Assembly (NCBI GenBank): GCA_965203905.1
Contig: CBDBDQ010000005.1
Span: 1,888,001-1,952,000, forward strand
Source of the DNA: Spirochaetia bacterium
GTDB lineage: Bacteria > Spirochaetota > Spirochaetia > SZUA-6 > Bin103
Direction of reading: 5' to 3'
DNA length: 64,000 nucleotides
The notes under the pieces are model-generated. The model was not told where the DNA came from and did no database searches. It saw nothing but the letters and a program-made list of their open reading frames with translations. Positions 5,848-49,289 of the stretch are shown here, in pieces. Numbering within the stretch: the stretch's first letter is position 1; every line of letters begins with the position of its first letter. Both the position numbers and the translations under genes were made by a program.

Positions 5848-6039
5848 ATGGCTACCGCGACCGCTTCGGGCTTCTCCTCCTCGCTCTCCGGGCTCCCCGA
5901 CCAGGTGCTGCTGGCGCATACCAGGTCCCTCGTCCTGCACGAGCAGGCGCTGCAACTCGCCGTCCTCGACCACCTGCGCGAGATCCACGCCCGCCACCTC
6001 CACCTGCGCCGCGGGTTCTCCAGCCTGTTCGACTACGCC
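5848..6039 (+). pseudogene. N-terminal fragment of a DUF222-like/HNH endonuclease-family protein, truncated by the island
   Basis: LAVLDHLREI..RHLHLRRGFSSLFDYA resembles the N-terminus of this family; GC and codon usage collapse at 6040. Confidence 0.55.
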
Positions 6040-6518
6040 ATTATCGCTCTTATTTATAAGTACGATAATAGTTTACTCATTACTCCAGTATCCCGTTATT
6101 GCTCTCGCAACCCCTTGGTGGTATCCGATCATCCTTTGACTTCCTTCGGTCTTGCGCCGAGACGCGAGCGGAGCCGGTCATCGTGACTGTGAACGGCGTC
6201 AACCGCGGCTCCGCCACCGCCGTACCCATTGCCCTCACCTTCTCGCACGCGATTGGGACACCGTCAAGACGGCAGGAACTGAGCGTTCCGACGTGACGCT
6301 GAGCCAAGCGGCGTGGCTTGAACAATTCTATTCCGGCAGCGACGATGTTCCGCGACTGGCGCCGGTGCCACAGACGCTCAGCGTGAGGTTGCCGTGCACG
6401 CGCTCGCCCACATGAACCCGAACAGCATCCAGGCGGGCCTACTTCGCGAACCGGCTAGTCCGAGCGGCGGCGAAAGCTGATGGATGCAGCCACTATCCTG
6501 CCGCAGCAGAAGGGTCTG

Positions 6519-14322: not shown

Positions 14323-14916
14323 CTACCTGGGTAGGGCGTCACGACGATGCCGGGCGGTAGGCGGTGCCGTCGGACGGGTGTCGTTGAGCCAGGGCCAGCC
14401 CCCACCCTTGACCAGCCAAGCAAAGGCGAAGGGCAAAATCGTAAGCACCTCGGAGATGGTCACCGCACAAGCAACCCATCGCTCCGCGTGTTCGCGCTGC
14501 CAACTGAGGACAATTGATGCGAGTAGCCCCCGGACCATGATCCACAAGCATACTTTGTAGACTCTGTTGCGTGTTTGCTTCTTTCCCACACGCTCGCTTC
14601 CCTGCTGAAACTGGCAGGTGAAGTAACACATGAGCGCCATCGTTACCACGGCGCTGACGGCGTGAATCCCGTTGAGTAATGAAAAAGAGTCGTCACTGTG
14701 TTCGCGCGGGGGAAACATCCCTACGCAGATCGCCGCGACGCCCGCCAGACTGCTGATCCAATCCTCGTGTCGGGCCTCGGGGTATCCTTTGTACGCCACT
14801 AGTCCGAGGCCGATGGCGACCATGAATCCTGCGAACAGCAGGGCCAGCGGCGTGTGGTAGTAAGAGCTGAGTGCGTAGGGTATCGGCACTCTGAAGCGCC
14901 ACATCCCTACGCTCAT
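14323..14916 (-). CDS. Multi-pass membrane protein (DUF998-like), possibly 5'-truncated
   Basis: LSSYYHT, LVAYKGY, VGMFP, IHAVSA, FAWLVKG and about 5 hydrophobic helices. Confidence 0.6.
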   Translation of the reverse strand: MSVGMWRFRVPIPYALSSYYHTPLALLFAGFMVAIGLGLVAYKGYPEARHEDWISSLAGVAAICVGMFPPREHSDDSFSLLNGIHAVSAVVTMALMCYFTCQFQQGSERVGKKQTRNRVYKVCLWIMVRGLLASIVLSWQREHAERWVACAVTISEVLTILPFAFAWLVKGGGWPWLNDTRPTAPPTARHRRDALPR

Positions 14917-15171
14917 CCGGTTCTCCCGGTCGGCCGGCGGGGTCTAAGTGTGGTGGGCCGACCGCACCGTTTCATTGGGGACCTCTTCATTGGGGACCTC
15001 ACCGGAAAAGGGCCAAAGAGTCAATTGACCGCCCACCCGGCAGTCCGAGGATGCAAACTCTTACGGAGCCACGACTTACAGATAACGCATCTTCATGTCA
15101 CGGACGTAAACCTACTCCGACAGATTGACATTTTCGGCTCTGCGTGATAGAGCCTCGCCAAGAGAAACACA

Positions 15172-16151
15172 ATGAGCCCCAACAATCGAAGCTCCAAGGG
15201 ACCCGGCCGGGCATACCGGAAGGGCATCTCGTTGATTGAGCTCGCCAGGATGTTCCCGGACGATGCGGCCGCGGAACGCTGGTTCAGCAAGGGCCGTTGG
15301 CCTGACGGCCCCCGCTGCCCCCACTGCCACAAGACCGAGACGGTCAAGCGGCGCACCCACCCCAGCATGCCGTACCACTGCAGCAAGTGCCGGCGGTTCT
15401 TCAGCGTGAAGGTCGGGACCGTCATGGAGAACAGCAACCTCGGGCTCCAGAAGTGGGCGTTCGCGGTGTACCTGATGGCGACGAACCTGAAGGGCACGAG
15501 CAGCATGCACCTCCACCGGGATCTGGGGATCACCCAGAAGTCCGCCTGGTTCATGGCGATGAGGATCCGTGCCTGCTGGGAGCAGGGGCGCTCGCTGTTC
15601 GATGGACCGGTCGAGGTGGACGAGGCGTGGTTCGGTGGCCGGGAGGCCAACAGCACGCCAGCAAGCGCCTCGGATCGGACTGGCGTACCGGCAAGACCGT
15701 CGTGGCCGCCGCCCGCGATCAGGCGACCGGGCAGATCACCGCCAAGGTGGTGCCGGACACGCCCCCGTGGGTACTGCAGAACTTCGTGATGGACACGGCC
15801 GAGACGACCGCCGAGGTATTCACGGACGACAACCCCAGCTACAAGCGGCTCATGTACCTGCATCGTACGGTACGGCACAGCGTCGGGGAGTACGTGAATG
15901 AGCAGGCGCACGTCAACGGCGTGGAGTCGTTCTGGTCGATGCTCAAGCGGGGCTACTACGGCACGCATCACCGGATGAGCCCGGCGCACCTACAGCGTTA
16001 CGTGGACGAGTTCGCGGGCCGGCACAACCAGCGTGATGCGGACACCGAGGTCCAGATGCTCGGCATGGTGCTGGGGATGGTGGGGAAGCGGCTCCGCTAC
16101 CGTGACGTCGCCGTCGGAAAGGCCGCTGGCAACATTCGGGCGGCTCAGTAG
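15172..16151 (+). pseudogene. IS1595-family transposase, frameshifted near 15650
   Basis: Zn ribbon CPHC..CSKC, VEVDEAWFGG, FTDD, HSVGEYV, HVNGVESFWSMLKR, YVDEFAGRHN split over two frames. Confidence 0.92.
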
Positions 16152-16157
16152 CGATCG

Positions 16158-16481
16158 ATGCTCGACACTCTACTTGTTGGCTTCCAAGCGATTATTACGA
16201 TGATCTTCATCGGGATATTCATCCTCCTGGCTTTCCCGAGTGCAGCCGTAGCCGTTTGGATTCTCAACCTTTTCTCGTTCGTGATCCCCACCATCATGGG
16301 GATGATGACCATAGGGGTCGAGGACGAGATGCTCAGCGCAGCTATCTTCGGAGCAACCTTCCCTCTCACCTTATTCCTGTGGATCTCCGCCGTCGTGGCG
16401 ACCCGCAACAAGCATCAGGCTGATCTCCGCCGAGAAAGACACAGGGCTCAGGCCGAGGCGCTGACAAGATTATCGTCATGA
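16158..16481 (+). CDS. Small membrane protein
   Basis: Three hydrophobic segments. Confidence 0.6.
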   Translation: MLDTLLVGFQAIITMIFIGIFILLAFPSAAVAVWILNLFSFVIPTIMGMMTIGVEDEMLSAAIFGATFPLTLFLWISAVVATRNKHQADLRRERHRAQAEALTRLSS

Positions 16482-16755
16482 GCGAAAGTGTCAAGCTGAT
16501 TGACAAATATCGCACCCTCCTGTTAGGCTAATCCCTGGAACCGATCAGACCGCACTGGTGTCCCCGCATGTCGGGTCACCCGCGCGGAATACAACAGCCC
16601 CTCGTGTGCGGTACGGGAGTAGCTACCCAGACCCGCCGGGTGAATACGTGCGGTACGCACCAACCCTAAGGGACACCTATCGGTCGGGCAGATTCAAGAC
16701 GGCCCGGCTCCTTGCCGGGCACAACGGCTGAACGATCGGACGGTCCAACCACCTG

Positions 16756-30647: not shown

Positions 30648-31320
30648 GTGCGTCCAGCAAAGGCTGGCGCGTTCAGCGGGAGACAGACCCGCCGGGGCAA
30701 AAGCCAGAGCCCCGTAGCTTGAGTGACAGGGAGGAGGGAAACCGAGTGAACTGAAGCTCACTGACACGGCCACCGGAAGGGTGGTCGGCGAGTCACCGGG
30801 CCGTAGCGAAAGCGAACGCGCAGGTGGCCACGAAATGTTCATGCCCCGGAGGCCGAGTCTGCGTAATTGGGATGAAGGCAACATGGCGCAGCGCAGACTG
30901 GCTGAAGCGCTGCGGCACTCCGGCGTGGTGGTAGCGACGGCACGGCGACAAGGACGCGCTAAGCAACTGGAGAAGCCCTCCTCGCCCCGGCGAGAAATCG
31001 GCGGAGCAAGGTAGGCCGTATAACCGGGAGCACCGGGTGGTCGGCCGACAGGCGAGAGGGTGGCGGCGAGGCTGGTAGTACCGAGGAAGCCGGGTAACGC
31101 CGGTGGAGGGAAGCGGCCCTGCTGCCTGCGACGACTTCGACAACATGGGAGGCAGAGGCGAGATGAGAAAGGCGCCGATCGAGCTGCGGGACCTGAGACG
31201 AAGGATATACGTGAAGGCGAAGGCAGAACCAGAATGGCGATTCTGGGGCCTGTTCGTACACGTGTGCAAGATGGAGACCCTGCGTGACGGGGTGACGTTC
31301 GAGTCCATCGAGGCCAGCGA
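30648..31320 (+). mobile_element. 5' fragment of a group II intron with truncated RT/maturase
   Basis: GTGCG 5' end, GTAGTACCGAGGAAGCCGGGTAACGCCGGTGGAGGGAAG DII/DIII motif, ORF MRKAPIELRDLRRRIYVKAKAEPEWRFWGL..DGVTFESIE; no YADD, DV or DVI. Confidence 0.9.
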
Positions 31321-36259: not shown

Positions 36260-37271
36260 CTTGCAGCCCCCCGATCCTGCACTCAGTTGCTCTTGTCCAG
36301 TATAACAAAATGAACGAACAAACTACAAGTAAGGGGGTCATGGAATGAGGAATGTGGAGTAGGGGCCGCCCCGCCAGGCGGACATTTTCTGCTGTTGGGT
36401 CCCATCCCGGTCCCTGAGACTTCCATTTTCAGATTCTGTCCGCGGGTCCCTTCTGCTGGGGCCCCAGCTCGGGATTCTCCTCCCTTCCCCCCGTTTCTCC
36501 CAATTTTTTCGTGGCGCGCGCGCCGGCATATGAAGCCCCGCGCGCAGCGCGGGGTGGGAAATGAGCGGGGGGGCGGGGTGGGGGTGGCCGGGGGTCCCTG
36601 AGCGTCTGCGGACCGCCGGAGACGGAGCGCTGCCGCGCCGCGGGCGGCCTGCCGGGCCTGACCGCACCCGCTGAACACCTCGCGAACGCGCCGCGTAGTG
36701 CCCAACCATGAGCGCATGGCCGCTCAACGCCACGCTGAGCCCATTGCCCATGAGCGCACACCAACGGGCACAGCACCACGTCCAACGCTGAGCGCGAGCC
36801 TGAGCAGGGTTGGTGAAGGGAAGGGCGAGCGTCCCGCCGTGGATAGGTGCGGTGCCGGGTGGGGAGCCCAACCCCAAGGCGCCGGCTGGGTCGGCTTCGG
36901 GCGGTGTGGCGCCGGGGTGAGTGACCGCTCGGTCGGGCGGGGGAAGCGGCAGCCGCTCGGGGTGACCGGCGCCGGTGGCGATCCCGACGCCGCACCGGGG
37001 GTGGCAGCCTCGCCGTTGACGCGCACACGTCAAACAGGCCACCCGGCACCGGGATCTGCGCCGCGCCTCGATGCCGGCGTTGCGCCACCGGACACGTGGC
37101 CCGCGGCCTGTCGAACACCGTAGTCAGCACAGCACAGTATGCCGTGACCAGCATCCGGGAGTCTGAGCGCGCTTCGAGCGGTCCTCGGTCGGCGCAGCGG
37201 GGCGAAAGGACGGCGTGAACGCCGCGTAATGCGCCGAACGGCGGGCCTGTGAAAAAAGCGTCTGAGGGGGG

Positions 37272-37300
37272 TTGACTCCCCTAATTTAGATTATGACAAT
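37272..37300 (+). promoter_or_regulatory. Putative sigma-70 promoter for the small-gene operon
   Basis: TTGACT-N17-GACAAT in an AT-rich patch. Confidence 0.55.
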
Positions 37301-37500
37301 GTATCTTGTAGGAAGCTAATCAAGGGCTTCCGGGGAGGCGAGCAGGCGCGCATCGCAGCGCGCGCCACCAACCAACCGGCAGGGCGGGGAGCCACCGAGC
37401 TTTGATCCGCGCCATGCGTCTCGGGTGGGTGAAGGGCGCACCGCAGCCCACCCGTAGAGCGCAGCACCGGAGGGGGTGCACGGGGTGCAGATCAACCAAA

Positions 37501-37556
37501 CAGCGGCGCGCGCGGGTGCTTCCGACAGGAACGTGGTCCGACTCCACGGCGTGCTG
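37501..37556 (+). ncRNA. tRNA-like module 1
   Basis: CAGCGGCGC/GCGTGCTG closing stem; TTCC-GACA-GGAA hairpin; CGTGG-TCCGACT-CCACG T-arm. Confidence 0.5.
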
Positions 37557-37598
37557 CATACCAACTCCCGCTGAGCGCGGGAGCACGGGAGGACATAG

Positions 37599-37907
37599 AT
37601 GGACGGGAGAACCGTATGGGTGAAGCCCGGCGACGTGGACGGCCGGATCGAAGCCGGAAACGTTGTCACGGCAACGCGAGCGCTCGATGCGTGGTGCCTG
37701 CGCGGGGACGACGGCAGCACGCCGATCGCCGCCGGCAGCGCGCTTGAGATCGTCGAGGAAAGGGCTTGGGGCGCTTCCATGGCCATGGAACTGCCGGCGC
37801 TGAGCGAAGAGGACGATGCCGGCAGCCGTGCCGCTGACAGCGAGGCATGGGTACAGGCCGGCCTTGAGCTTCAGGAGCTTGGCCTGTTCGAGGTGATCGG
37901 GCTGTGA
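37599..37907 (+). CDS. Hypothetical protein
   Basis: GGAGG RBS; first gene of a translationally coupled series. Confidence 0.65.
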   Translation: MDGRTVWVKPGDVDGRIEAGNVVTATRALDAWCLRGDDGSTPIAAGSALEIVEERAWGASMAMELPALSEEDDAGSRAADSEAWVQAGLELQELGLFEVIGL

Positions 37908-38683
37908 GCACGGCGACGATACACGCCAACGGGAGGGTCAACGTGACCCTCCCGAACATCAGCATCCTCGTAGATCGGCAGGACGCCGAGAGCCTGCGCG
38001 ACGCGCTCAACGCGGAGTTGCCGCTGGAGCAGGCCGCGGCGCCGGTAGCGCGTGAACGCGACCTGATGCTCGATCCCACCATCCGCGACATCGACGTGCT
38101 GCGCGCGGCGCAGGCCATCGCAACCGAGCACGCATGCCACGGCGTGGTGAAGCAGCTTGCGCACATGGTGACGCTGTACTGCGGCGGCGATGCCGACGAG
38201 GCGTTCGTACCGGGGCAGGTGATGAGCGACGTTACTGCGCCGCGCATCCGGTGGATCTCGGACGAATGGGTGAACGGGCGCAACGCGACCATCGAGACCA
38301 AGGAGCGGCGCCTGTCGCCGGCGATGGTGGAGCGGACCTACAGGGTTGAGGGCTACGTCCTGAACCGGCATCGCCTGCCGGAGCTTCGCCACACCAAGCC
38401 GTTCCCCAACTACACCGATGCGGAGCGCGCTGCCGAGCAGTGGACGCGCGCTGCCGAGTGGCCGGGGCACACCGAGCCGCCGGCGGACGTGTACGACCCG
38501 CCGGCCGAGGTCGTTGACGACGAGTATCCCGTCCACGTGGGTGACCGCGTACGCGATCCGATGGATGGGCGCTGGCGGACCGTGACGCGGATCGAGGGCG
38601 ACACGGTGTACCTGGCGGACGGCGGGTGCATGTCGGCCGACGAGTGCGGCGAGATCCGGCTGCCGGGCGAGGACCTGGACTGA
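37904..38683 (+). CDS. Hypothetical protein with a C-terminal SH3-like segment
   Basis: GTGA overlap; VGDRV..RTVTRIEGDTVYLADG. Confidence 0.65.
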   Translation: MSTATIHANGRVNVTLPNISILVDRQDAESLRDALNAELPLEQAAAPVARERDLMLDPTIRDIDVLRAAQAIATEHACHGVVKQLAHMVTLYCGGDADEAFVPGQVMSDVTAPRIRWISDEWVNGRNATIETKERRLSPAMVERTYRVEGYVLNRHRLPELRHTKPFPNYTDAERAAEQWTRAAEWPGHTEPPADVYDPPAEVVDDEYPVHVGDRVRDPMDGRWRTVTRIEGDTVYLADGGCMSADECGEIRLPGEDLD

Positions 38684-39093
38684 TGCGGGTACTGACCAAC
38701 CTGGAGGTCAACGACAAGGCGGCTGCGCTCCTGGAGCGCGCCGCCGTCTTTGTGGGCATCGGATGGACGCAGGGCGCGGCAGCGCGGAACGACGCCGGTG
38801 TCCCGGTGTCGCCTACCGCGCCGGATGCGTGGTGCTGGTGCGCAACGGGCGCCCTGCTGATCGCCAGCTACCGCGTGGGGCTGCTGAAGCTGAGCGGCGG
38901 CGATGAGACCGCAGTCCGGCGGGCCGCGTGTGCCGTTCTGGAGAAGCTGATCCGTGAGACCACCGGCCTGCCGGAGGATCGGGGCGGGGTGATTGCGTAC
39001 TGGAACGACCTGGACGGCCAGCGGCAGGCGGACGTGAAGGACGCGCTGATCCGCGCCGCGCGGACGCTGAAGCCGCTCACGGAGGCGTGCTGA
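38683..39093 (+). CDS. Phage protein, DUF6197-like
   Basis: GWTQGAAAR..AWCWCATGAL..YWND. Confidence 0.75.
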   Translation: MRVLTNLEVNDKAAALLERAAVFVGIGWTQGAAARNDAGVPVSPTAPDAWCWCATGALLIASYRVGLLKLSGGDETAVRRAACAVLEKLIRETTGLPEDRGGVIAYWNDLDGQRQADVKDALIRAARTLKPLTEAC

Positions 39094-39575
39094 TGACGGA
39101 TCTGCTGGACGCGCTGAAGCGCAACAACCGGTTGCTCCAGGAGATCGCGTTGCAGTACGGCGCCGGCACCGGGGAGGGCGGCGCCGCTGGTACCCCCGTG
39201 CTGAACACGCCGGAGGCCGTGGCGAACCAGTGCATGGACATGGGCGGCCTGCTGCAAGAGCAGTTGCGGGTGCTGCTGCTGAACACCAAGTCGGAGCTGC
39301 TGGAGGCCGTGACGGTCTACCAGGGCACGGTCAACGCCGCCTCGATCCGGGTCGCGGAGATCCTGCGCCCTGCCATCGTGAGGGGCGCGCCCTACTTCAT
39401 CGTGGTCCACAACCACCCCTCGGGCGACCCGTGCCCAAGCGGGTCTGATACGCGGGTGACGCGGAAGGTGCGGACGGCGGCGGAGTACTTCGACATCGAG
39501 CTGTACGACCACGTGGTCGTCGCGCGGCGCGGCTTCGTGAGCCTGCGGCAGCGCGGCATCGGCTGGGAGGGCTGA
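39093..39575 (+). CDS. radC: RadC/JAB-domain protein
   Basis: QEQLRVLLLNTK, VHNHPSGDPCPSGSD, LYDHVVV. Confidence 0.93.
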   Translation: MTDLLDALKRNNRLLQEIALQYGAGTGEGGAAGTPVLNTPEAVANQCMDMGGLLQEQLRVLLLNTKSELLEAVTVYQGTVNAASIRVAEILRPAIVRGAPYFIVVHNHPSGDPCPSGSDTRVTRKVRTAAEYFDIELYDHVVVARRGFVSLRQRGIGWEG

Positions 39576-39800
39576 ATGGCAGGGGAAGTGATCCACGGTC
39601 AGGCCGGCCGGGAGACGTTGGTGATCCGGCGCGAGGAAACGCGCTCGTCGCTGACCGCGATCTACTACGCGATCTACGCCAAGAAGGACGGCGAGGACGT
39701 GTGGTACGCGGAGCGGCTCGCCGGGGGCTTGGCGCTGGACGTGGCTGAGGCATGGGGCTGGCGCGGGGAAGTGCCGGCCGACAGCGAGGCAGCATCGTGA
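39576..39800 (+). CDS. Small hypothetical protein
   Basis: Abuts radC; RBS GGGAGG. Confidence 0.6.
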   Translation: MAGEVIHGQAGRETLVIRREETRSSLTAIYYAIYAKKDGEDVWYAERLAGGLALDVAEAWGWRGEVPADSEAAS

Positions 39801-39806
39801 ACGAAA

Positions 39807-39851
39807 GCCGGCAGGAACAGCGTGAGCGTGGTTCAAACCCACCCTGCCGGC
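39807..39851 (+). ncRNA. tRNA-like module 2 (minihelix)
   Basis: GCCGGCAGG/CCTGCCGGC 9-bp stem stacked on GTGG-TTCAAAC-CCAC. Confidence 0.6.
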
Positions 39852-39906
39852 AGACCCAGCCCGCAGGCGCTACAGGGCGCCGGGGCACTTCTGGAGGGAC
39901 CCCCGA

Positions 39907-40353
39907 ATGACCGCTGCACAGAGATTTCTCAAGGAGGACCTGGACGACGCGCAGCGCATGGCGCGACTGCGCGCCGCGGCCGTCACGGTCGAGGATCGCA
40001 CCTACAGCACCGTGTGGACCATGCAGGACGGCAGCCGGGTCGAGCGCGGCTGCGCCCGTGGCGTCGCCGCCTACGGCACGCTGCCGTCGCTGGTCGCCAT
40101 GATCGAGCGCACCCTGAAGGCAGACCGCGAGACGATCGTCTACTACCGCCGGTGCGAGGCGCAGGCGCGGTTGCGCGCCAAGCGCACCGGCAGCGCTGCC
40201 TGGTCGGCTGCGGCTGGGCAGTGGGTCATGGCGCGGTTCGAGCTGGAGGCCGACATCCGCCGGCACCTGCGGGAGCTGATCCGGCTGCGCCGTGGCTGGC
40301 AGGCCATCACCGACTACCGCCTCGACCACTACGTGGCGCGGAGCGCTGCCTGA
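39907..40353 (+). CDS. Hypothetical protein
   Basis: GGAGG RBS; GC3-rich frame. Confidence 0.65.
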   Translation: MTAAQRFLKEDLDDAQRMARLRAAAVTVEDRTYSTVWTMQDGSRVERGCARGVAAYGTLPSLVAMIERTLKADRETIVYYRRCEAQARLRAKRTGSAAWSAAAGQWVMARFELEADIRRHLRELIRLRRGWQAITDYRLDHYVARSAA

Positions 40354-40757
40354 TGGTGGCGCAGCCTCAGACCATCCGCACCGCGGCCGCGGAGGTCCTG
40401 GACGGCGCCGCCCGGTACATCGAGACCGGGTGGTGCCGCTTCTCCACAGCACGCGGCGCCGACAACGTGCCCTGCGCACCGACCAGCACCGACGCGGTGT
40501 GCTGGTGCGCTTCCGGGGCGATCCACGTCGCCGCGCGGCGTAGCGCGCCCCCGCATCGGCTGGGAACCATCACCGAGCAGGCGCAGCGGGCCATGGTCGA
40601 CGCGATCCTGGAGACGCATCCGGAGTTCTTCGACCCCGGCACGCTGCCGATGTGCGCGATTGCCTCCTGGAACGACCACGCGGAGATCGGGCCGACGACC
40701 GTGATTGATCGGCTGCACCGCGGCGCCGAGCTGCTGCGGCTGCCGGCGGCGGCATGA
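40353..40757 (+). CDS. Phage protein, DUF6197-like (paralogue of 38683-39093)
   Basis: GWCRFSTAR..AVCWCASGAI..SWND. Confidence 0.75.
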   Translation: MVAQPQTIRTAAAEVLDGAARYIETGWCRFSTARGADNVPCAPTSTDAVCWCASGAIHVAARRSAPPHRLGTITEQAQRAMVDAILETHPEFFDPGTLPMCAIASWNDHAEIGPTTVIDRLHRGAELLRLPAAA

Positions 40758-41029
40758 AGGTTGCCATCCGCGCCGGCATGCGCCTGCAACTGTCCCGCGA
40801 GCCCGCGCGCTTCACCCGCGCGCCGCGCCGGGTCCTGGTGTACCGCCAGGGCGACCGGCGCGCCGTGGTGTGGCGCAGCGACCTGATTCTGATGGGTCGG
40901 CGCGGCCGGCCGTACACCGTGCTGCTGCTGCGCGAGGACGGCGGCGACTGCCGCACCGAGTCTCACCGCACCGTGCCTGCTGCGCTCGATACGGCGCGCG
41001 GCTGGGTAACGGGTGCCATCGCCGAATAG
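40754..41029 (+). CDS. Small basic hypothetical protein
   Basis: ATGA overlap with the previous gene. Confidence 0.55.
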   Translation: MKVAIRAGMRLQLSREPARFTRAPRRVLVYRQGDRRAVVWRSDLILMGRRGRPYTVLLLREDGGDCRTESHRTVPAALDTARGWVTGAIAE

Positions 41030-41117
41030 TGGCGAAATACGGGCCATAGCGCGCCCGTATCGTGCCGGGGCTGGCCGCCCGGTGCCTGAATGAGCCATGG
41101 CCGACAGGAGGGTTGCT

Positions 41118-41498
41118 TTGAACAACCTCAACTCCGTTTTGATCGAGGGCAATCTGTGCCGCGATCCCGAGCTTCGCTACACGCCGAAGGGCACGCCGAC
41201 CTGCACGCTGGTGCTGGCGTCGAACCGCTCCTACAGGGACCCGGAACGCCAGGGCGAGCGCATCGAGGAAGTCTCGTTCATCGAGACCACGACCTGGGGC
41301 AAGCTCGCCGAAGTGTGCCACGAGCACTTGGCGAAGGGGCGCGGCATCCGCGTGGTCGGGCGCCTGAAGCAAGAGCGCTGGGACGATCCGCACGGCAATC
41401 AGCGCGCCAAGGTCGTGATCGTCGCCGAGCAGGTTGAGTTCCAGCCGAAGCGGCAGCCGGCCCGCCAGACGGCGGAACCGGCAGCCGCTGCCAGCTAG
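41118..41498 (+). CDS. ssb: Single-stranded DNA-binding protein lacking the acidic C-terminal tail
   Basis: NSVLIEGNLCRDPELRYTPKG, WGKLAE, KGRGIRVVGRLKQERW. Confidence 0.95.
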   Translation: MNNLNSVLIEGNLCRDPELRYTPKGTPTCTLVLASNRSYRDPERQGERIEEVSFIETTTWGKLAEVCHEHLAKGRGIRVVGRLKQERWDDPHGNQRAKVVIVAEQVEFQPKRQPARQTAEPAAAAS

Positions 41499-41606
41499 TA
41501 CCAAGGGGATGGCGGGGCGCTTCAGCTACGAGAGCGTTCCGCCAACCCCAACCCCTGCGGCCTTCTCTTTGCCGGGTCGAGCCGCAGGGATCGGAGGACA
41601 CACCCT

Positions 41607-41807
41607 ATGCCGAACCGTAGAGGATCGCAACGCCGGCGCCAGGAGCGCCGCGAGAACAGGCGCGTCGAGCGCGAGCTGCTGCACACCGCCATCAAGGACC
41701 TGCGCGCCGCAGTGATCGACGAGGACGCGGGCAACGACCACGTGAGGGACTGCGCGTTCGAGGTCGTCGAGGCCTACGAGCGCGCTGTGCCGGAGCATCG
41801 AGAATGA
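41607..41807 (+). CDS. Small hypothetical protein
   Basis: GGAGG RBS. Confidence 0.55.
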   Translation: MPNRRGSQRRRQERRENRRVERELLHTAIKDLRAAVIDEDAGNDHVRDCAFEVVEAYERAVPEHRE

Positions 41808-42004
41808 CCCGCACCATGACCTTGGCCGACCGGGCCGCGAAGCTCGGCCTGCGGGTCGAGACCGAACCGCACGGCGCCGGCGCCGGGATCGCCGGCTACA
41901 CCGTCTTTCGGGGCGGACAGTGGCTGTTCCAGGGGACCGCGGCCGAGGCGCATGCGTTCCTGGACGGCTACGGTGCCGCCCTGGCGCTGCGGTGCCTCCC
42001 ATGA
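41804..42004 (+). CDS. Small hypothetical protein
   Basis: ATGA overlap. Confidence 0.5.
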   Translation: MTRTMTLADRAAKLGLRVETEPHGAGAGIAGYTVFRGGQWLFQGTAAEAHAFLDGYGAALALRCLP

Positions 42005-42311
42005 GCGCGCCTGAGGCACTGTGGCGAACCAAGGACGGCAAGGTCGCCATCTTCCGCCTGGTCTACCACGCCCGGCGACCTGGACACCGCCAGCTACCCC
42101 GCCGGCTATGCGCAGCGCAACCCGCGCTTTGCGCCCCTGACATCGCCCCCCGGCTACCCGCTGCAGGTACTGGCCAGCGATGGCGAGCTGCACTACGCCG
42201 AGGCAGCGGACCGGGGGCGCATCAACGCCGACGGCGTGTTCCGCCTGCGGGACCTGCGGCGCGGCTGAGGCGCCGCTTCCCCTACCCCCATTCAGACATT
42301 CAGGAGAACCT

Positions 42312-42728
42312 ATGGAACGACATGAGACGTTCGCCGCGGCTGCCCTGCAGGGCGTCATCGCCGCGCGCACCAACTTCGACATCGCCGGCGAGATCGAGCT
42401 GGCGTGGCGCTACGCCGACGGCATGGAAGCCGAGGCGGCGCGCCGCGGCAAGCTGGCGATGGCGGACCAGCTTCCCTACGACTGCGAGGTCACCATCACC
42501 GCCAAGGCCGACTACAGCTACGCCCTGGTCGAGGGCATCGAGGCCGCGACCGAGCAGGGCATCGAGTACTCCAACCGCGATCGCCGCTTGATCGGCGAAG
42601 TACTCGCCGCCTACGGGCGCGCCGAGGACGCCGGCAATTCGTTCACTGGCCGGTGCGAGCTGTCCCACACGTTCGGCGAGGTCTGCCGCTTCACGTTCAC
42701 GCCGAAGCAGGACGACGAGCCGAGCTGA
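42312..42728 (+). CDS. Phage hypothetical protein
   Basis: FAAAALQG..LAWRYADGM motif seen in phage early genes; AGGAG RBS. Confidence 0.7.
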   Translation: MERHETFAAAALQGVIAARTNFDIAGEIELAWRYADGMEAEAARRGKLAMADQLPYDCEVTITAKADYSYALVEGIEAATEQGIEYSNRDRRLIGEVLAAYGRAEDAGNSFTGRCELSHTFGEVCRFTFTPKQDDEPS

Positions 42729-42781
42729 TCCCGCGCCGGCGGCGCCGCCGGCACCACACCACAACCGCACACGACACGCCT

Positions 42782-42820
42782 GCAGGGCGCCTTCGGACTC
42801 CGGGGGCGCCCTGCTTGTGT
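42782..42820 (+). terminator. Strong GC hairpin (terminator-like or processing stem)
   Basis: GCAGGGCGCCTTCGG-ACT-CCGGGGGCGCCCTGC followed by TTGTGT. Confidence 0.5.
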
Positions 42821-42821
42821 C

Positions 42822-42872
42822 CGGACGCCCGGGCTGGGCCTGCGCAGGGGTTCGACTCCCCTGCCCCGTCCG
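42822..42872 (+). ncRNA. tRNA-like module 3
   Basis: CGGACG/CGTCCG closing stem; GCAGGGG-TTCGACT-CCCCTGC T-arm. Confidence 0.6.
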
Positions 42873-42901
42873 TAGCCGCTACTGCGGCCAAGGAGCTCCA
42901 C

Positions 42902-43372
42902 GTGAAGGTTGGAGTACCGATCATCGTGATCGCCATGGTGGCGATCCTCGTCATGGGTTGCGCCGGCAGCGAGATCGCGCCGGCAACGTCCGACGCGCCG
43001 GCGCCGGGGAACGGCGACCCGCTGGCAGCGCTGTACGCGGCACCGCCGGCCGGCGCCGCCTTCATCACCGTCGCCGACGTGGACAGCGTGGGACCGGACG
43101 CCCTGTCGTTCGATCCCTTCTACCACTACGGCTACGCCGCCGAGCTGGTGGTGCCGTCCGTTCCCTGGGGCGCGCCGTTCGAGGACCTGAGCCTGGATCT
43201 GGCGGCTTCGGACGCCGTGGCGCTGCCGGTGCACGTCGACATCGACGCCCACTTCACCGCGGCCATCGCCGCCGCCGCAGTCGACGCTCAGCCGGTGGTG
43301 TGGGAGCGCGGTCCGGAGACGCAGCAGCCGCTCCCGGAGGGTTGGGAAAGCCCGCCGCTGGACGCGAAGTAG
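42902..43372 (+). CDS. Putative lipoprotein
   Basis: AGGAG RBS, GTG start, lipobox ILVMGC. Confidence 0.65.
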   Translation: MKVGVPIIVIAMVAILVMGCAGSEIAPATSDAPAPGNGDPLAALYAAPPAGAAFITVADVDSVGPDALSFDPFYHYGYAAELVVPSVPWGAPFEDLSLDLAASDAVALPVHVDIDAHFTAAIAAAAVDAQPVVWERGPETQQPLPEGWESPPLDAK

Positions 43373-43521
43373 CCGGTGGCCGAGTTGTTCCTTGGGGCGG
43401 CAGTCATCGCGGCTGCCGCCCTTCTGGTGTGGGTGGCCGTACGCATCGTGGTGCGGCTGTTCACGCGCCCGGGTGGCGATGGGCCATGACCGGGACCGCT
43501 CTGGCCGGCAGGAGGCGGCGC

Positions 43522-43821
43522 ATGCTGATAGATCTGATCTGGACGGCGCCGCCGGCACTGCTGGTGGTCGCCACGGCCGCCTACGCTGCCGGCTTGATGT
43601 GGGCGCTGGCCTGGGACGTCGAGCGCCTGCGCTGGCGCGAGTTCGACGGCTGGCGCACGATCCTGCGCGATCGCGTCGCCCGGGGCGCGGCGCCGGCCCC
43701 GCCCATCCTGGGCTGCAGCTACTTCGCGCGGCTGCGCTGGCACCGCACCTACGGCTGCGGCTGGCGCCGTGTGCAGCGCGCCCGCATCGCAGCCCGGCGC
43801 TGGGACCGCTCGTTCCGGTAG
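43522..43821 (+). CDS. Small membrane protein
   Basis: AGGAGG RBS; one transmembrane helix. Confidence 0.5.
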   Translation: MLIDLIWTAPPALLVVATAAYAAGLMWALAWDVERLRWREFDGWRTILRDRVARGAAPAPPILGCSYFARLRWHRTYGCGWRRVQRARIAARRWDRSFR

Positions 43822-43841
43822 CAGGCGGTCCTACCCCCCTT

Positions 43842-43916
43842 GGCGAGAGGTTTTCCAACACCCGGAGGAGAAGCGGGTCATGACCCGCCGGCAGGTTCGA
43901 GCCCTGCCCTCTCGCC
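43842..43916 (+). ncRNA. tRNA-like module 4 (non-canonical cloverleaf)
   Basis: GGCGAGAG/CTCTCGCC; TTTTCC/GGAGAA arm; GCGGG-TCATGA-CCCGC arm; GGCAGG-TTCGAGC-CCTGCC T-arm. Confidence 0.7.
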
Positions 43917-43970
43917 CTACCGGCACCCGGACCGGGAGCCGAAATACACTACCAGGAGGAACAGTGCCAC

Positions 43971-45080
43971 ATGAGCACCCCCGACAGACCCCAACTGCCC
44001 GCCGCGGCCGCGGTGTGCGCCGACCCGCCGGCGACGGTGCCCACCCTCACCGAGCCGGGACCGCTCGACCGCAACCCCGCCGCCGTGTACCTCGCCGCCA
44101 AGGCGTCCGCGGTCGGGCGCCGCGGCCTGCAGCGTGCGCTCAACCGCGCCGCCAAGATCCTGACCAGCGGTATCACCAAGGATGCCCTGAGGGTGGAATG
44201 GACCGAGCTCCGCTACCCGCACGTGGCGGCGCTGCGTGCCTTGCTCATCGACCAGGGCGCCGCGCCCGCCACGATCAACCACCTGCTGTCCGCCGTCCGC
44301 GGCACGGTCAGGGAGGCGTTCAACCTCGGCCTGGTCGACGCCGACACCATGCTGCGAATCGGCAACGTCAAGAGCGTGACCGCGAGCACCCTGCCGGCGG
44401 GCCGCCACGTCGACGTCGGCGACATACGCCGCCTGTTCGACACCTGCAGCGAAGGCGACACCCCGGTGGGCGCCCGCGACGCGGCCATGCTCGCCCTGCT
44501 GTACGGGTGCGGGCTGCGGCGCAGCGAGGTCGTGGCGCTGGATCTCACCGACTACGACGCCGGCGCGGTCACGGTGCGCTCAGGTAAGGGACGGAAGGAT
44601 CGCATCGTCTATCCCCCGACGGGTGGTCGCGCCGCGATCGACGCTTGGCTGGCACGCCGCGGCTTCTGGCCGGGCGCGCTGCTGGCGCCCGTGGCCAAGG
44701 GCGGCAAGATCCAGCATCGCGGCATGAGCGCCCAGGCCGTGATGCTGCGCCTGCGCCACCTGGCCAAGGCGGCCGGCATCAAACCGTTCTCGCCGCACGA
44801 CCTGCGGCGCAGCTTCGTCGGCGAGCTGCTCGACAAGGGCGCCGACATCAGCGCCGTGCAGCAGCTCGCGGGGCACTCCAACGTCTCGACCACGCAGCGC
44901 TACGACCGCCGCCCCGAGGAAGCCAAGCGGCGCGCGGCCGAGCTGCTGCACGTGCCGTACAGCGGTCCGCCGCCGATGCTGCCGGGCAAGCCCGCGGAAT
45001 CGCGGGACGATCCCCCACCCGCCGTTGAGGCCTCGCCGCCCGGGCGCGCCGATCCGCCGCCTGCAGGCGCACCTGGTTGA
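43971..45080 (+). CDS. Tyrosine recombinase/integrase, intact
   Basis: GLRRSE, GKGRKDR, HDLRR, LAGH, TTQRY: full R-K-H-R-H-Y set. Confidence 0.95.
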   Translation: MSTPDRPQLPAAAAVCADPPATVPTLTEPGPLDRNPAAVYLAAKASAVGRRGLQRALNRAAKILTSGITKDALRVEWTELRYPHVAALRALLIDQGAAPATINHLLSAVRGTVREAFNLGLVDADTMLRIGNVKSVTASTLPAGRHVDVGDIRRLFDTCSEGDTPVGARDAAMLALLYGCGLRRSEVVALDLTDYDAGAVTVRSGKGRKDRIVYPPTGGRAAIDAWLARRGFWPGALLAPVAKGGKIQHRGMSAQAVMLRLRHLAKAAGIKPFSPHDLRRSFVGELLDKGADISAVQQLAGHSNVSTTQRYDRRPEEAKRRAAELLHVPYSGPPPMLPGKPAESRDDPPPAVEASPPGRADPPPAGAPG

Positions 45081-45331
45081 CCTACGGTGGGAGATACACC
45101 CGCCGGCAGCGGGTCGGCCTCCCACCGAAACGGAGCGTCTGGAGCGGCAGCGTTGCCGCGAGCTCGGCGCATCGAGGGCCTCGCCGCGGCGGATCCGGAG
45201 CTGCGGACGTGGGAGCCGTACCCGTGAATCGAGGGGCGTGTCTCCCACCTTGGCACCTTCCCCCGCTACTTGCCGTGCCCCGGCGCACCGCGTAGGCTTG
45301 TGCCTGGGGTAACACCCCTCCGTAACTGCCG

Positions 45332-45368
45332 CCTTCCCCTGCCGAGTGTCGGGGGGAGGCGGCTTTTT
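45332..45368 (+). terminator. Rho-independent terminator-like hairpin
   Basis: GCCGCCTTCCCC...GGGGGGAGGCGGC followed by TTTTT. Confidence 0.6.
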
Positions 45369-45382
45369 GCGTCTAAGGAACG

Positions 45383-45580
45383 ATGCCTGACCTGAACGAC
45401 TGGCGCTTGAACGGCCGGCGCCGACTCGAAGGCCGCCGGCGCACTCCGCCGTGGGTGGGGGTGCTGGTGCTGGCGATGGTGATGTACCTCGCCAGCATCG
45501 CCCTCACCTTCACGGTCGCGTTCTTCCTCGACCAGCGCATCGTCGCCATCGAGCAGCTCCTGGACATCAGGGAGAAGTAG
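45383..45580 (+). CDS. Small single-TM protein
   Basis: Basic N-terminus and hydrophobic helix. Confidence 0.5.
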   Translation: MPDLNDWRLNGRRRLEGRRRTPPWVGVLVLAMVMYLASIALTFTVAFFLDQRIVAIEQLLDIREK

Positions 45581-45626
45581 GGGAGGTCCCAGCGGGCTGG
45601 GCGGTCCCACTGGGAAGGCGTGTACC

Positions 45627-45975
45627 CCCTCTCTGTCAAACCGTGCAAAGTCTACAAGGGCTGCGCGCGAAAAGGCCAATCCCTGCCTCTCTACGCACTC
45701 CTTTTGGCCATTTCGCCTTGTGGACTTTGGCTGCCGGTCCACAAGCGGTACACAAGGGGTCCCGCAAGCGCGGCCGCCGCCAGCGGGTTCGGCCATCCAC
45801 AGGCGTCAGCACGTAGGTCGCCCTCTCTCTCAACTGTGCAGACTTGACAAGGGGTGCGCGCGAAAATGCCAATCCCTGCCTCTCTACGCACTCCTTTTGG
45901 CAGTTTCGCCTTGTCAAGTTTTGCTGGGCTTGACAAGCGGTAGACAAGGGGTTTCGAGGGACCCGGCAAGCGCGG
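45627..45975. repeat. Two imperfect direct repeats of about 150 bp (period about 193 bp)
   Basis: Identical core GCCAATCCCTGCCTCTCTACGCACTCCTTTTGGC at 45675 and 45868. Confidence 0.92.
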
Positions 45976-46481
45976 GGCCGGTGGGGAACCGCGGGGCCGG
46001 CCTTCGCTGCCTTGCCGCGCCGCCAAGCCCACCGGTACGCTGTCAATAGGGACCGCCCCCGCGGAATCCCTCCCAAGCTGGCCGCCGTCTCCTTGAGAGC
46101 CCAGGAAACGGCGGCTTTCTTTGTGCCCAGTCGCTCAGGCGCTTCAGGAGCGCTCGCAGGCGCCGGATGGTGGGCATGTACCACCTCGGCGCGGCGAGCG
46201 TGCTGTGGCCACAGGAGCGGGCACTCCGCTGGAAATTAAGAGACGGGCGCCCGGTGTCGTTTCCAAGACTCAACGGGCACCCGCGACCAGAGCCCCGGCA
46301 GGTGTCGAGATACCGACGGGAAGCGCTGATCCGTCACTTAATGTACCGCAAGCGCCGCGGCGCGTCACCTGTCCCGAGCGGCACCAGCTTCACCCCCGTG
46401 TTCCGCCACGCGGCCAGTGCTCCCACACGCTGAGACCGCCGACGAGGACGCCGAGCATCCCGCCCCGCCAGCGTGCCGCCA

Positions 46482-46721
46482 TCACGACGCGGCAAGCACC
46501 TGGCCGACGCCAGCCCGTAACGCTTCGTTCACTTGATCCCAGGTCAAAGCGTAGGGGCTGATCGGACCAGGGGCGTGCAGCAACTCGCCGGTGCGAGCGT
46601 CATGCAGAGCCCAACAGCCGTAGTCCGCGGCCCCCGGATCACGCGTGCGGGACGCAACCAAGCGGATGCCGCGTCGGTAGGCCATGGCGCGCACGCGTAC
46701 GACTTCACTTCTATCGATCAT
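46482..46721 (-). CDS. Small hypothetical protein divergent from VapE
   Basis: RVRAMAYRRGIRLVASRTRDP..DYG. Confidence 0.6.
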   Translation of the reverse strand: MIDRSEVVRVRAMAYRRGIRLVASRTRDPGAADYGCWALHDARTGELLHAPGPISPYALTWDQVNEALRAGVGQVLAAS

Positions 46722-47015: not shown

Positions 47016-48380
47016 TTGGGGAAGGGGAAGTTTGTGCGTAGACCACTACGAGAATCCAATGAACGCGGTGCCACCCGCGGCAACGGCCAGCAGAACGGTG
47101 CCGCGCTAGCGACACGGAAACGAGTTCGCAAGGACAGGAGTGATAAACCTGTCATCCCGGCCAGTGCCCGCGGGTTCAGCGACTCGTTAGAATTGGTGAA
47201 TGCTGACATCCGATACAATGTCCGCGCTGCAAAGTACGAAATCTGCCTGAATTTTTTTGACGATCCATCCGGCTGGGAGGAAGCAAACTCGCGTCGCTGG
47301 GCCTACCTGTTCGAACAGGTAGCGGAGCGCTGCGATTTCGCGACCGCCAGTAGTATAAAACCGGCGCGGTTTTCCAGGGAGCTACGCAAGCAGGTAATCG
47401 ATGCGTACGGCTTCGCACACGAGGTCGATCCATTCAAGAGCTGGCTGTTAAGCCTTCCTCCGTGGGACGGGGTTAAACGCCTGGACACTTTGCTTGACCT
47501 CGTTTTCGAGGTCCGCGCCGGTCAAGATCCGGACCTGGTTAAGTGGATCTCAGGTGTCGTGCCCACCACCGCTGTTTGGCGCTGCATGGAGCCAGGCTAC
47601 CAGCAGGACGTTGTGCCGGTGCTGATCGGGGGGCAAGGCATAGGCAAGTCCACTTATCTGCGTGCGCTGCTGCCCGACGATCGGGACGAGTGGTTCGGCG
47701 ACGGGCTGTCGCTCATCTCGGATGACAAGGCGCGGGTGGAAGCGACGTTGGGCAGGGTCATCGTCGAAATGTCGGAGATGGCCGGTTCCACCAGAGCGGA
47801 CCGGGAGCAAATGAAAGCTTATATCTCGCGTCGCAATGATAGCGGCGTCCGGTTGGCCTATCGACGCGATCCCGAGGACATGCCACGCCGCTTTGCACTG
47901 GCCGCGACCAGCAACGACCGGTCATGCCTGCCTGCCGATCCCACCGGCCTGCGTCGCTTCGCGCCGGTGGAGCTGGACGCCAAGATCGCCGGCTGCGGCG
48001 GCGAGCGCCAGCCGGCGATCTTCGTCCGCGAACGGATCGCGACCAGCCGCTCTCAACTATGGGCGGAAGCTCTGGCACGCTACAACGCCGATATCCCACC
48101 GGCCATGCCCCTCAAGCTGGAAATGGGTGCCGCCGCCGAACAGGCCGAACAGTACCGCAACGCCGATGAGGTCCTGGAGGAAAAGCTCCGCGACTGGTTG
48201 TGGGTTCAGAGTGATCCGTTTCGGCTGAAGGATGCCATGGAAGCCGCTGGTTACCGCTCGGAAGCGCCGCCTACCTCCGCCGAGGGAAAACGCGTCGCAG
48301 GCGCCCTGATTCAGCTCGGCTGCACGAGAACGAAGATCCGCGATGCGAGACTGTGGCGGCCACCGTCAGACCTGAGTTGA
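47016..48380 (+). CDS. VapE/VirE-family P-loop ATPase (phage/satellite helicase); start uncertain
   Basis: LPPWDGVKRL, LIGGQGIGKST, VEMSEM, RLAYRR, ATSN..DPTGLRRF, QLWAEA. Confidence 0.92.
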   Translation: MGKGKFVRRPLRESNERGATRGNGQQNGAALATRKRVRKDRSDKPVIPASARGFSDSLELVNADIRYNVRAAKYEICLNFFDDPSGWEEANSRRWAYLFEQVAERCDFATASSIKPARFSRELRKQVIDAYGFAHEVDPFKSWLLSLPPWDGVKRLDTLLDLVFEVRAGQDPDLVKWISGVVPTTAVWRCMEPGYQQDVVPVLIGGQGIGKSTYLRALLPDDRDEWFGDGLSLISDDKARVEATLGRVIVEMSEMAGSTRADREQMKAYISRRNDSGVRLAYRRDPEDMPRRFALAATSNDRSCLPADPTGLRRFAPVELDAKIAGCGGERQPAIFVRERIATSRSQLWAEALARYNADIPPAMPLKLEMGAAAEQAEQYRNADEVLEEKLRDWLWVQSDPFRLKDAMEAAGYRSEAPPTSAEGKRVAGALIQLGCTRTKIRDARLWRPPSDLS

Positions 48381-48410
48381 CAAAGGGTTGGTGAAGGAGT
48401 CCCCGGTCCG

Positions 48411-48608
48411 TAGACACTTCGGACACTTCAACGCTATTCGTTTTGTTTTTTTCTCCTCTCATCAGGAAACGTGTTCTACGCACTTCTTTTGCTCTGTCGT
48501 TATCCATCGCCGTAAAGGAAGTGTCCGAAGTGTCCATAGTGTCTTAGTGGTTCGGTGACAAGGATTTAACCGTGGACACTTGCGGAATTGAAGCGTCCCG
48601 AAGTGTCC
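48411..48608. promoter_or_regulatory. Putative iteron replication origin
   Basis: Eight GGACACTTC/GAAGTGTCC-like 9-mers in both orientations around a T-rich core. Confidence 0.7.
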
Positions 48609-48671
48609 GGCGAGAGCGGAGCAAGGCCGGCGAGAGCGGAGCAAGGGTCCCCGTGGTATCGTCTCCCGAGA

Positions 48672-49289
48672 ATGAAGCGCTGCTACGCTTGTTTACACCC
48701 GCAACGCGCCGCCATCGACGCCGATCTGCTCCAGGGCATCTCCTACCGGACGGTCGCCGCGCGCTACGACATCAGCGCGGCCGCCCTCCATCGCCATCGA
48801 AGCAAGCACCTGTTCCTGCCCACTGTGGGCGACCTGCGGGGTCCAGCGACCGGGACCATGCAGTACGTCCCCGACTGGTTGCGCTGGGACGGTAGGAAGT
48901 GGCAGCCCTGCGACCCGCCCGACCCCAAAGATGTGATCGAGGTGAGCGGTCGGCCTGTAAGACCCAGCGAGTTCAAGAAGGAGGGCCGCGTGGTGGGCAC
49001 CTACACTCGCAAGACCTATCGGCTGCGCAGGTCAAAGCTCCGCTCCACAGAGCACGCCGTGGGCGACCTGCTGGGGCCGGCTGCCGGGACCACCCTCAAA
49101 CACTGGTTGCGCTGGGACGGCAATGAGTGGCAGCGCTGCGACCCGCCCAACCTCGAAGATGTGATTGAGATGCACGGTCGGCCCGAGCACAAAGGCAACA
49201 TCGTGGACCCCAAGGACCGCAGCCGCGTGCTGGGCACCTACATCCGCAAGACCTATCGGCCGCGCAGATCACGGCGCCAATCCTCGTAG
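48672..49289 (+). CDS. HTH protein (CxxCxHP type) with a duplicated C-terminal domain
   Basis: CYACLHPQRAAIDADLLQGISYRTVAARY; two VGDL.GP..WLRWDG..WQ.CDPP..GTY.RKTYR units. Confidence 0.7.
   Translation: MKRCYACLHPQRAAIDADLLQGISYRTVAARYDISAAALHRHRSKHLFLPTVGDLRGPATGTMQYVPDWLRWDGRKWQPCDPPDPKDVIEVSGRPVRPSEFKKEGRVVGTYTRKTYRLRRSKLRSTEHAVGDLLGPAAGTTLKHWLRWDGNEWQRCDPPNLEDVIEMHGRPEHKGNIVDPKDRSRVLGTYIRKTYRPRRSRRQSS

Follow-up and report, generated by a model that had tools for sequence, protein, structure and literature searches.

The mobile element described here lies in a 64,000-nt stretch (the window; C5:1888001-1952000) of the genome of a Spirochaetia bacterium, G000, which comprises 7.99 Mb at 66% G+C and whose contigs include C3, C4 and C5. 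The region at 37.3-45.4 kb of the window (~8 kb) is predicted to be the single operon of a ~10 kb integrase-bearing mobile element, and four of its intergenic gaps each hold a small tRNA-like module, m1 to m4. That these modules are real structures kept by selection we consider nearly certain. We propose that they could be processing signals for RNase P and RNase Z, that is, bacterial "t-elements" that would punctuate the mRNA; on this we find our judgment evenly poised.

tRNA-like modules in a predicted operon

The element coincides with a ~70% G+C block at 36.4-46.4 kb of the window, flanked by DNA of 55-63% G+C. Its plus-strand gene run opens with g1 and g2 (both without an assigned family), a DUF6197 protein, a RadC-like JAB protein, and g5. 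A second block consists of g6, a second DUF6197 protein, and g8; a third of SSB, four small genes (one frameshifted), and g13; and a fourth of a lipoprotein-like protein and two small membrane proteins, after which a tyrosine integrase closes the gene order. Gene content thus differs in kind among the module-bounded blocks (RadC/DUF6197; SSB; lipoprotein-like and small membrane proteins; integrase). We read the run as one operon because a single promoter and a single terminator were found in 36900-46500, and because the promoter box upstream of g1 (TTGAC..TATGACAAT or TTGACA) is matched in three related loci (L003, L004, and L005, introduced below) and in three other copies of the element in this genome.

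37272-37300, plus strand: sigma-70-like promoter, TTGACT-17 nt-GACAAT, the sole promoter-like site found in 36900-46500
43971-45080, plus strand: tyrosine integrase, the final operon gene (Pfam Phage_integrase, E = 1.1e-29)
45328-45363, plus strand: intrinsic terminator, a 14-bp stem followed by TTTTT, the sole strong terminator-like site 3' of the promoter in 36900-46500

The modules lie between gene blocks of this predicted operon, as follows.

37503-37557 (9-bp register), plus strand: module m1, closed by a 9-bp helix that includes two G-U pairs; it encloses two hairpins, of 2 bp and of 4 bp (4-nt loop), and a T-arm of 5 bp (loop UCCGACU); closing helix and T-arm are in the minimum-energy fold
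39807-39851, plus strand: module m2, with a 9-bp closing helix, a GC-GUGA-GC mini-hairpin, and a 4-bp T-arm with loop UUCAAAC
42822-42872, plus strand: module m3, closed by a 6-bp helix; it encloses a small hairpin whose loop contains GG and a T-arm of 7 bp (loop UUCGACU)
43842-43916, plus strand: module m4, closed by an 8-bp helix; its arms are a weak one, one of 6 bp with a 4-nt loop, and a T-arm of 6 bp (loop UUCGAGC)

All four are on the coding strand in operon gaps, and in each a closing helix is stacked on a T-arm of the form GG-UYCRANN-CC, usually with a small D-like hairpin. A 7-nt anticodon loop is missing from all four: where a middle arm exists, its loop is 4 nt long. The original prediction, made from the letters of the sequence, had placed four same-strand elements at these sites, and our coordinates agree with it apart from m1, which it had put at 37501-37556. 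Its T-arms and distances to the next start codon also recur: GG-TCCGACT-CC in m1, 42 nt from g1 (37599); GG-TTCAAAC-CC in m2, 55 nt; GG-TTCGACT-CC in m3, 29 nt from g14 (42902); and GG-TTCGAGC-CC in m4, 54 nt from the integrase (43971). So do two broader claims, that the acceptor-plus-T-arm architecture is common to all four while stem sequences differ, and that the modules separate gene blocks of one (predicted) operon ending in the integrase.

The tRNA-like fold is the minimum-energy fold of m2 (z = −3.68; 0 of 200 shuffles as good), a three-way junction, and of m4 (z = −3.31; 1 of 200), a four-way junction. The fold of m1 is also a four-way junction (z = −1.43; 17 of 200 shuffles as good), and m3 forms a three-way junction when its closing helix is enforced.

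To gauge how often such structures arise by chance, we scanned for T-stems no shorter than 4 bp that carry a 7-nt loop T[TC]C[GA]A and have, within 0-2 nt, a closing helix of 6 bp or more. Of 323 plus-strand hits to the architecture in the window, 4 had the loop, and these are exactly m1-m4; of 340 minus-strand hits, none did. Genome-wide, 288 of 98,676 architecture hits had the loop, 47 of them inside tRNA genes. Scrambling the sequence, a check that the original prediction had named as capable of refuting it, left the modules standing: 1000 dinucleotide shuffles of the operon gave a mean of 0.065 hits (maximum 2) against the 4 observed, and 2000 shuffles of the seven intergenic gaps (967 nt) gave a mean of 0.003.

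The T-arm motif GGTTCRANYCC, which m2, m3, and m4 match exactly and from which m1 (GGTCCGACTCC) departs by one base, occurs 111 times in the genome: 46 times in tRNA and transfer-messenger RNA (tmRNA) genes, 10 times in the four copies of the element (35.8 kb), and 55 times in the remaining 7.95 Mb. Outside tRNA genes it is therefore ~40-fold denser in the element copies than elsewhere. At 10 of the 55 other sites, chosen because they are clustered, no closing helix was found, and these sites look like coding sequence.

Canonical tRNA genes were considered and rejected, given that ARAGORN and Rfam were negative, that the modules have no anticodon loop, and that their stack is not 7 + 5 bp. ARAGORN found no tRNA gene in the window. 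The sole tRNA-clan match in the window at E <= 10 in Rfam is a weak one of m4 to tRNA-Sec (25 bits; gathering score, 47). The C4 and Y-RNA families, to which the original prediction had pointed for comparison, have no match in the window at E <= 10.

Copies, diverged relatives, and covariation

This genome has four copies of the ~10 kb block, namely, in the window, on C3, on C4 (first half only), and again on C5 at 4.77 Mb, with DNA identities of 74-93%; m1-m4 are present in every genomic copy that spans their position. Across the four copies, 98.8% of the cells in the m1 alignment are paired, with two compensatory pairs in its 4-bp hairpin and three G-U/G-C switches in its closing helix, and its loop is UUCGACA or UUCAACC in two copies. 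Module m2, found in all four, shows one compensatory pair (A-U to G-C) in its closing helix, and m3 shows one among its copies. We found no compensatory pair in m4; a covariance model built from its three copies scores those copies at 80-93 bits.

More distant relatives were sought by two routes. A profile search of genome contigs with the integrase returned 52 loci, the closest three of which (L003, L004, and L005) are 65-67% identical; all three have the order g1..SSB..integrase in common, with tRNA-like modules. Metagenome DNA contigs from four sequencing runs contained many diverged relatives. Of the 22 metagenome loci found with a g1 profile, two span the whole operon: L063, with three modules, and L077, with four. 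In sampled genomes g1 was rare, being found in 1 of 401 from the phylum (G000 itself) and in 2 of 151 relatives (G000 and G401, a genome of the same genus), and it was not found in viral contigs. G401 carries two element copies that are possibly the same as L003 and L004 and so were counted once.

Two features of L063 were recorded in passing. Its operon adjoins a CBASS-type set (SMODS, ThiF-like protein, and SAVED-HNH; 1566-6402, minus strand), and a gene for a 649-aa ParB-like protein lies between two of its modules (14559-16508, plus strand).

Four further module families, with unrelated stems, occur across L003, L004, L005, L063, and L077, at four sites: on either side of ssb, downstream of g13, and upstream of the integrase. 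Modules follow ssb in L003, L004, L063, and L077; the window has two hairpins in that slot. A tRNA-like module likewise precedes ssb in L005, L063, and L077, where the window has a hammerhead-like element. These two slots are occupied in the window as follows.

41030-41100, plus strand: hammerhead type II-like three-way junction between g8 and ssb, core CUGA-A-UGA, with an extra base after A6
41505-41589, plus strand: two stable hairpins after ssb (z = −4.95; 0 of 200 shuffles as good)

In all, nine operon copies, drawn from four sources, have modules at corresponding gaps, and these modules fall into about eight sequence families. Since the copies are related, counts over the nine are not independent, and the fair number is about eight families from four sources. 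With that reading, architecture hits with the T-loop number 26 of 506 on the plus strand of the nine copies and 0 of 469 on the minus strand. Among 28 curated modules, the T-stem closing pair is G-C, loop position 1 is U, and loop position 5 is A in every one, so the T-arm has the G53-C61-type closing pair expected of a tRNA; the loop begins UUCRA in 21 and UCCGA in 7. At least one G-U pair, which on the opposite strand would be an A-C mismatch, is present in 13 of 28 scanner hits, a list in which one entry is a chance hit within the coding sequence of ssb and from which the pre-integrase module of L077 is absent.

Covariation adds less. The family after ssb has two compensatory pairs, in its D-like arm, and there are none in the family after g13 or in the one before ssb; covariation within families is weak because the copies are few and close. 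Outside its own family the m4 covariance model reached no more than 15-18 bits (E, 0.37-1.6), with the pre-integrase modules of L004 and L077 going undetected at E <= 10, and so it yielded no alignment across families. The original prediction had looked to homologous elements for covariation. Its expectation holds insofar as the modules are kept in paralogous and orthologous operons with some compensatory changes, though few. Recurrence across families (the same design, in different sequences, at fixed gaps) appears to be the stronger argument.

This recurrence also bears on whether the modules might be decaying tRNA genes, or leftovers of attachment at tRNA genes, with no present function. 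The integrase family does target tRNA genes, in that many of the more distant integrases (~45-50% identity) adjoin real tRNA genes. The T-arms of two modules match host tRNAs in a BLAST comparison with 58 tRNAs (m3, 18 of 18 nt of tRNA-Glu(UUC); m4, 17 of 18 nt of a tRNA-Arg), and the weak likeness of m4 to tRNA-Sec points the same way. However, these matches end at the T-arm, at no more than 18 nt, and never extend into the 3' strand of the acceptor; every module retains the complementary 5' strand, which an attachment relic would be without; and there is neither a module duplicate at the element ends nor a module repeat outside the element copies. A truncated design without an anticodon loop, kept in about eight families at fixed gaps in diverged operons, is likewise hard to reconcile with decay, and we think such an origin very improbable. 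We specifically rejected m4 as the attP or attL site of the integrase, since no partial duplicate of it exists anywhere and it is interior in every copy.

Separately, ARAGORN reports elsewhere in the genome (G000:C5:4211301-4211376, plus strand) a tRNA whose UUA anticodon would decode the stop codon UAA; in the T-arm it differs from m4 by one base.

Proposed processing and competing readings

RNase P and RNase Z need, at the minimum, an acceptor helix stacked on a T-arm for recognition. The host possesses both enzymes: its type A RNase P RNA scores 218 bits, above the cut-off, and its RNase Z equivalog scores 333 bits against a cut-off of 293. RNase Z substrates lack CCA, and only 1 of 58 host tRNA genes encodes CCA, so host tRNAs should be matured by RNase Z. 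The modules are likewise without CCA.

On the processing reading, the acceptor/T-arm elbow of each module would be recognized by the host's tRNA-maturation enzymes. RNase P would cut on the 5' side and, because the modules encode no CCA, RNase Z is proposed to cut on the 3' side, after an unpaired base. The transcript would be split into leader, g1-g5, g6-g8, ssb-g13, the lipoprotein and membrane genes, and the integrase; the pieces would be separately stable and translatable, and short tRNA-like RNAs would be released. The hammerhead-like element, as a self-cleaver, would do the equivalent job in the gap before ssb. The suggestion of a mobile-element tRNA-punctuation system had already been made in the original prediction; the structures, their non-random occurrence, their strand, their conservation at matching gaps, and the host RNase P RNA and RNase Z are observed and speak for it, and the rest, namely, transcription as one RNA, cleavage, and the effect of cleavage, is something that we infer rather than observe.

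A number of findings tell against processing. The acceptor/T stacks of m1-m4 measure 14, 13, 13-15, and 14 bp, compared with 12 bp in tRNA, and that of m3 contains a 2-nt gap; with such stacks, cutting by RNase P and RNase Z, and the position of any cut, are uncertain. Loop position 2 is C in 7 of the 28 curated modules (m1 and six others), where tRNAs have U55. In the window copy, m3 is the least tRNA-like of the four: its minimum-energy fold has the T-arm but not the proposed closing stem, and its tRNA-like fold lies 2.6 kcal above the minimum, compared with 0.4 kcal in the C3 copy and equality with the minimum in the second C5 copy. At gathering score, Rfam finds no tRNA-clan (CL00001) match in the window, only a piece of a group II intron elsewhere in it. 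Within-family covariation is thin, with 0-2 compensatory pairs per family of three or four sequences, and the m1 score of two such pairs is equalled in 76 of 500 shuffles. The remaining points concern the hammerhead-like element, the hairpins beside the modules, and the leader.

The hammerhead-like element scores 22 bits against Rfam Hammerhead_II (gathering score, 37; E = 0.72). At minimum energy it folds into the three-stem junction, and the element hardly varies among the four genomic copies. It has the hammerhead core CUGANGA...GAAA, the A15.1-U16.1 pair, and H17, bar the one extra base after A6. An insertion of this kind ("A6a") is a natural hammerhead variant of low activity, according to section 8 of PMC3088659 in the text available. 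The score below the Rfam threshold and the core insertion, of a type reported to be poorly active, both count against this candidate self-cleaver.

Downstream of every module, at a distance of 0-10 nt, stands a small hairpin, and after that a ribosome-binding site; m3 also has a longer hairpin on its 5' side.

37565-37583, plus strand: hairpin between m1 and the g1 ribosome-binding site, with another stem sequence but pairing kept in the second C5 copy
42773-42821, plus strand: long GC hairpin just upstream of m3, with a C-rich unpaired stretch 5' of it (z = −4.06; 0 of 200 shuffles as good; three copies)
42875-42888, plus strand: hairpin GCCGC-UACU-GCGGC between m3 and the g14 ribosome-binding site, identical in three copies
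43922-43940, plus strand: hairpin between m4 and the integrase ribosome-binding site, with pairing kept and stems differing in the C3 and second C5 copies

We considered the post-module hairpins as unusually stable 5' stabilizers, rejected the idea, and regard them as a pattern only: their median energy is −15.6 kcal, compared with −14.8 kcal for random 45-mers of the same operons, and 43% of these controls are as low. The C-rich, G-poor unpaired stretch between g13 and the pre-m3 hairpin (CACCACACCACAACCGCACACGACACG; 42755-42780, plus strand) is Rho-loading-like by composition only.

The 5' leader that precedes m1 is itself highly structured; with m1 at its end, the conserved stretch measures ~250 nt.

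37305-37500, plus strand: structured, conserved 5' leader (RNAalifold, four genomic copies)

RNAalifold over 37305-37600 gives 72 pairs, 13 of them with compensatory changes, in the four genomic copies. It also allows the 3' strand of m1 to pair instead with a distal leader segment, 37348-37357, an alternative that by this model could open or close m1. The leader has no Rfam match. A tmRNA-like RNA formed by leader and m1 was rejected, as a normal tmRNA is present elsewhere in the genome and the leader did not match.

If the modules are not cut, they may still be real mRNA structures, serving as barriers to 3' exonucleases, insulators that prevent adjacent ribosome-binding sites from folding, binding sites for a protein of host or element that reads the T-loop, or sponges or decoys for proteins that bind the acceptor/T-arm. 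The evidence of structure, strand, and conservation suits such uncut structures equally well, and in stack length (13-15 bp) and in their C at loop position 2 the modules diverge from tRNA. The operon also lies among defense genes and has genes typical of anti-restriction regions. On the other side, a full T-loop, a G-C closing pair, and a stacked closing helix are more specific than a plain barrier requires, and minimal known substrates of RNase P and RNase Z have exactly this stacked shape. Moreover, no recognizable RNA-binding family is present among the element proteins: all 10 operon proteins without a family assignment also lack a PHROG match. We take uncut structures to be a distinct but minor possibility.

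One version of decoy function, against anticodon nucleases, had been raised in the original prediction and is unlikely, for no module has a 7-nt anticodon loop and such nucleases cannot be the target of structures without one. A two-job reading is also conceivable: minimal tRNA mimics evolved by this family of elements would recruit RNase P and RNase Z to punctuate the early operon, interchangeably with the hammerhead, and the excised forms would last as small RNAs and titrate tRNA-directed host factors. Such factors could be modifiers or defense nucleases that recognize the acceptor/T-arm, or else the machinery for CCA addition and quality control. We hold this combination to be improbable. 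In such a scheme, the tRNA-Sec-like 13-14 bp stack and the missing anticodon would keep the mini-tRNAs out of translation.

Finally, the modules might act as DNA, either as folded single-stranded sites for the tyrosine integrase, in the manner of attC or CTX-phage attP, or as transfer or replication signals. They occupy successive intergenic regions beside a tyrosine recombinase, and Weinberg et al. (2017, PMC5737381; main text, in the part available) point out that motifs found in one intergenic region after another could be single-stranded DNA of the attC kind, which favors this possibility. Gene content near some modules varies among copies, and the SSB and ParB-like genes suggest a single-stranded DNA phase. 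Yet only the coding strand shows the T-loop motif and the G-U pairs, the operon has a standard promoter of the double-stranded type, and the element ends carry no direct repeats of any module. The modules also bound blocks of one to five genes rather than single cassettes, and where two copies have an extra gene behind m2, that gene shows translational coupling to g6 and no second module; on this gene arrangement we rejected integron attC sites. A role as DNA therefore seems to us a slim prospect, and processing by RNase P and RNase Z remains the reading that we carry forward.

Surroundings of the element and known systems

In the third block of the operon, the small gene at 42001-42268 (plus strand) seems frameshifted: the frame with high GC3 changes near 42060-42085, and the second frame has no start codon. 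Just 3' of the terminator lie two 95-nt direct repeats (45639-45733 and 45832-45926, plus strand), 86% identical and 193 nt apart, each with inverted ends; they are kept at the right end of the element copies. Further to the right, 47016-49289 encodes a VapE/D5-type primase. The left flank (6000-36300) is a defense and mobile-element island with two DNA methylases (one HNH-fused), a McrBC pair, DUF4238, a 1096-aa NOV_C/sacsin-like protein, an integrase fragment, and a group II intron domain (30674-30811).

Signals that resemble tRNA and direct processing of mRNAs are established in organelles and in a haloarchaeon, and also in eukaryotic long non-coding RNAs; RNase P and RNase Z of bacteria have been seen almost wholly as enzymes of stable RNA. 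If the processing reading is true, bacterial elements exploit host tRNA maturation to punctuate mRNA, with four to five dedicated modules at block boundaries, and the arrangement would parallel, in nature, the tRNA-spacer arrays that have been engineered for multiplex expression. We found no description of tRNA-like punctuation in a bacterial mobile element in full-text searches of a collection without most subscription journals, or in the available main text of Weinberg et al. (PMC5737381).

Several familiar systems share one aspect of the arrangement. In animal mitochondrial tRNA punctuation, and in the C4 RNA of P1 and the CI RNA of P4, host tRNA-processing enzymes define the ends of RNAs that are not tRNAs. 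Unlike the window modules, mitochondria use real tRNAs, and C4 and CI are single regulatory RNAs. mascRNA and MEN-beta are small cloverleaves with a reduced anticodon arm, which RNase P and RNase Z release from a longer precursor. These are eukaryotic; the module of one relative matches mascRNA-menRNA (Rfam RF01684) weakly, at 27.9 bits compared with a gathering score of 42.5, and the window modules have no match at E <= 10.

The closest parallels are the t-elements. In Arabidopsis mitochondria, t-elements defined by GGTTCRANYCC give rise to mRNA ends via RNase P and RNase Z (Forner et al. 2007, PMC1920247). As far as the available text of that report goes, they resemble the modules in having non-canonical tRNA-like folds, a GGTTCRANYCC T-arm (one base off in m1), a position beside coding regions, and no working anticodon. 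The plant t-elements sit in long precursor RNAs and their borders coincide with mapped mRNA ends, features that for the modules are predictions; the modules further differ in belonging to a bacterial mobile element rather than an organelle, in numbering four per operon, and in their longer, 13-15 bp stack. In Haloferax, t-elements with GGTTCRANYCC likewise give mRNA ends via RNase P and RNase Z (PMC4326828). Those of Haloferax volcanii are archaeal, and the natural example precedes 5S rRNA rather than dividing an mRNA operon; the text of PMC4326828 that is available states no link to a mobile element.

A different device appears to fill a similar place in prophages, where multiple hammerheads flank genes near integrases and ardA and have been proposed to cut long transcripts into shorter mRNAs (Perreault et al. 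2011, PMC3088659, in the text available). There, as here, devices that cleave RNA, or that here would do so, occupy successive gaps near an integrase and anti-restriction-type genes, and the operon in the window itself holds a hammerhead-like element of the "A6a" type. The difference is that four of the five devices here are tRNA-like and would depend on host enzymes rather than on self-cleavage. By analogy, then, the arrangement would be a bacterial counterpart of the t-elements of plant mitochondria and haloarchaea and, at the same time, of the multiple hammerheads of prophages.

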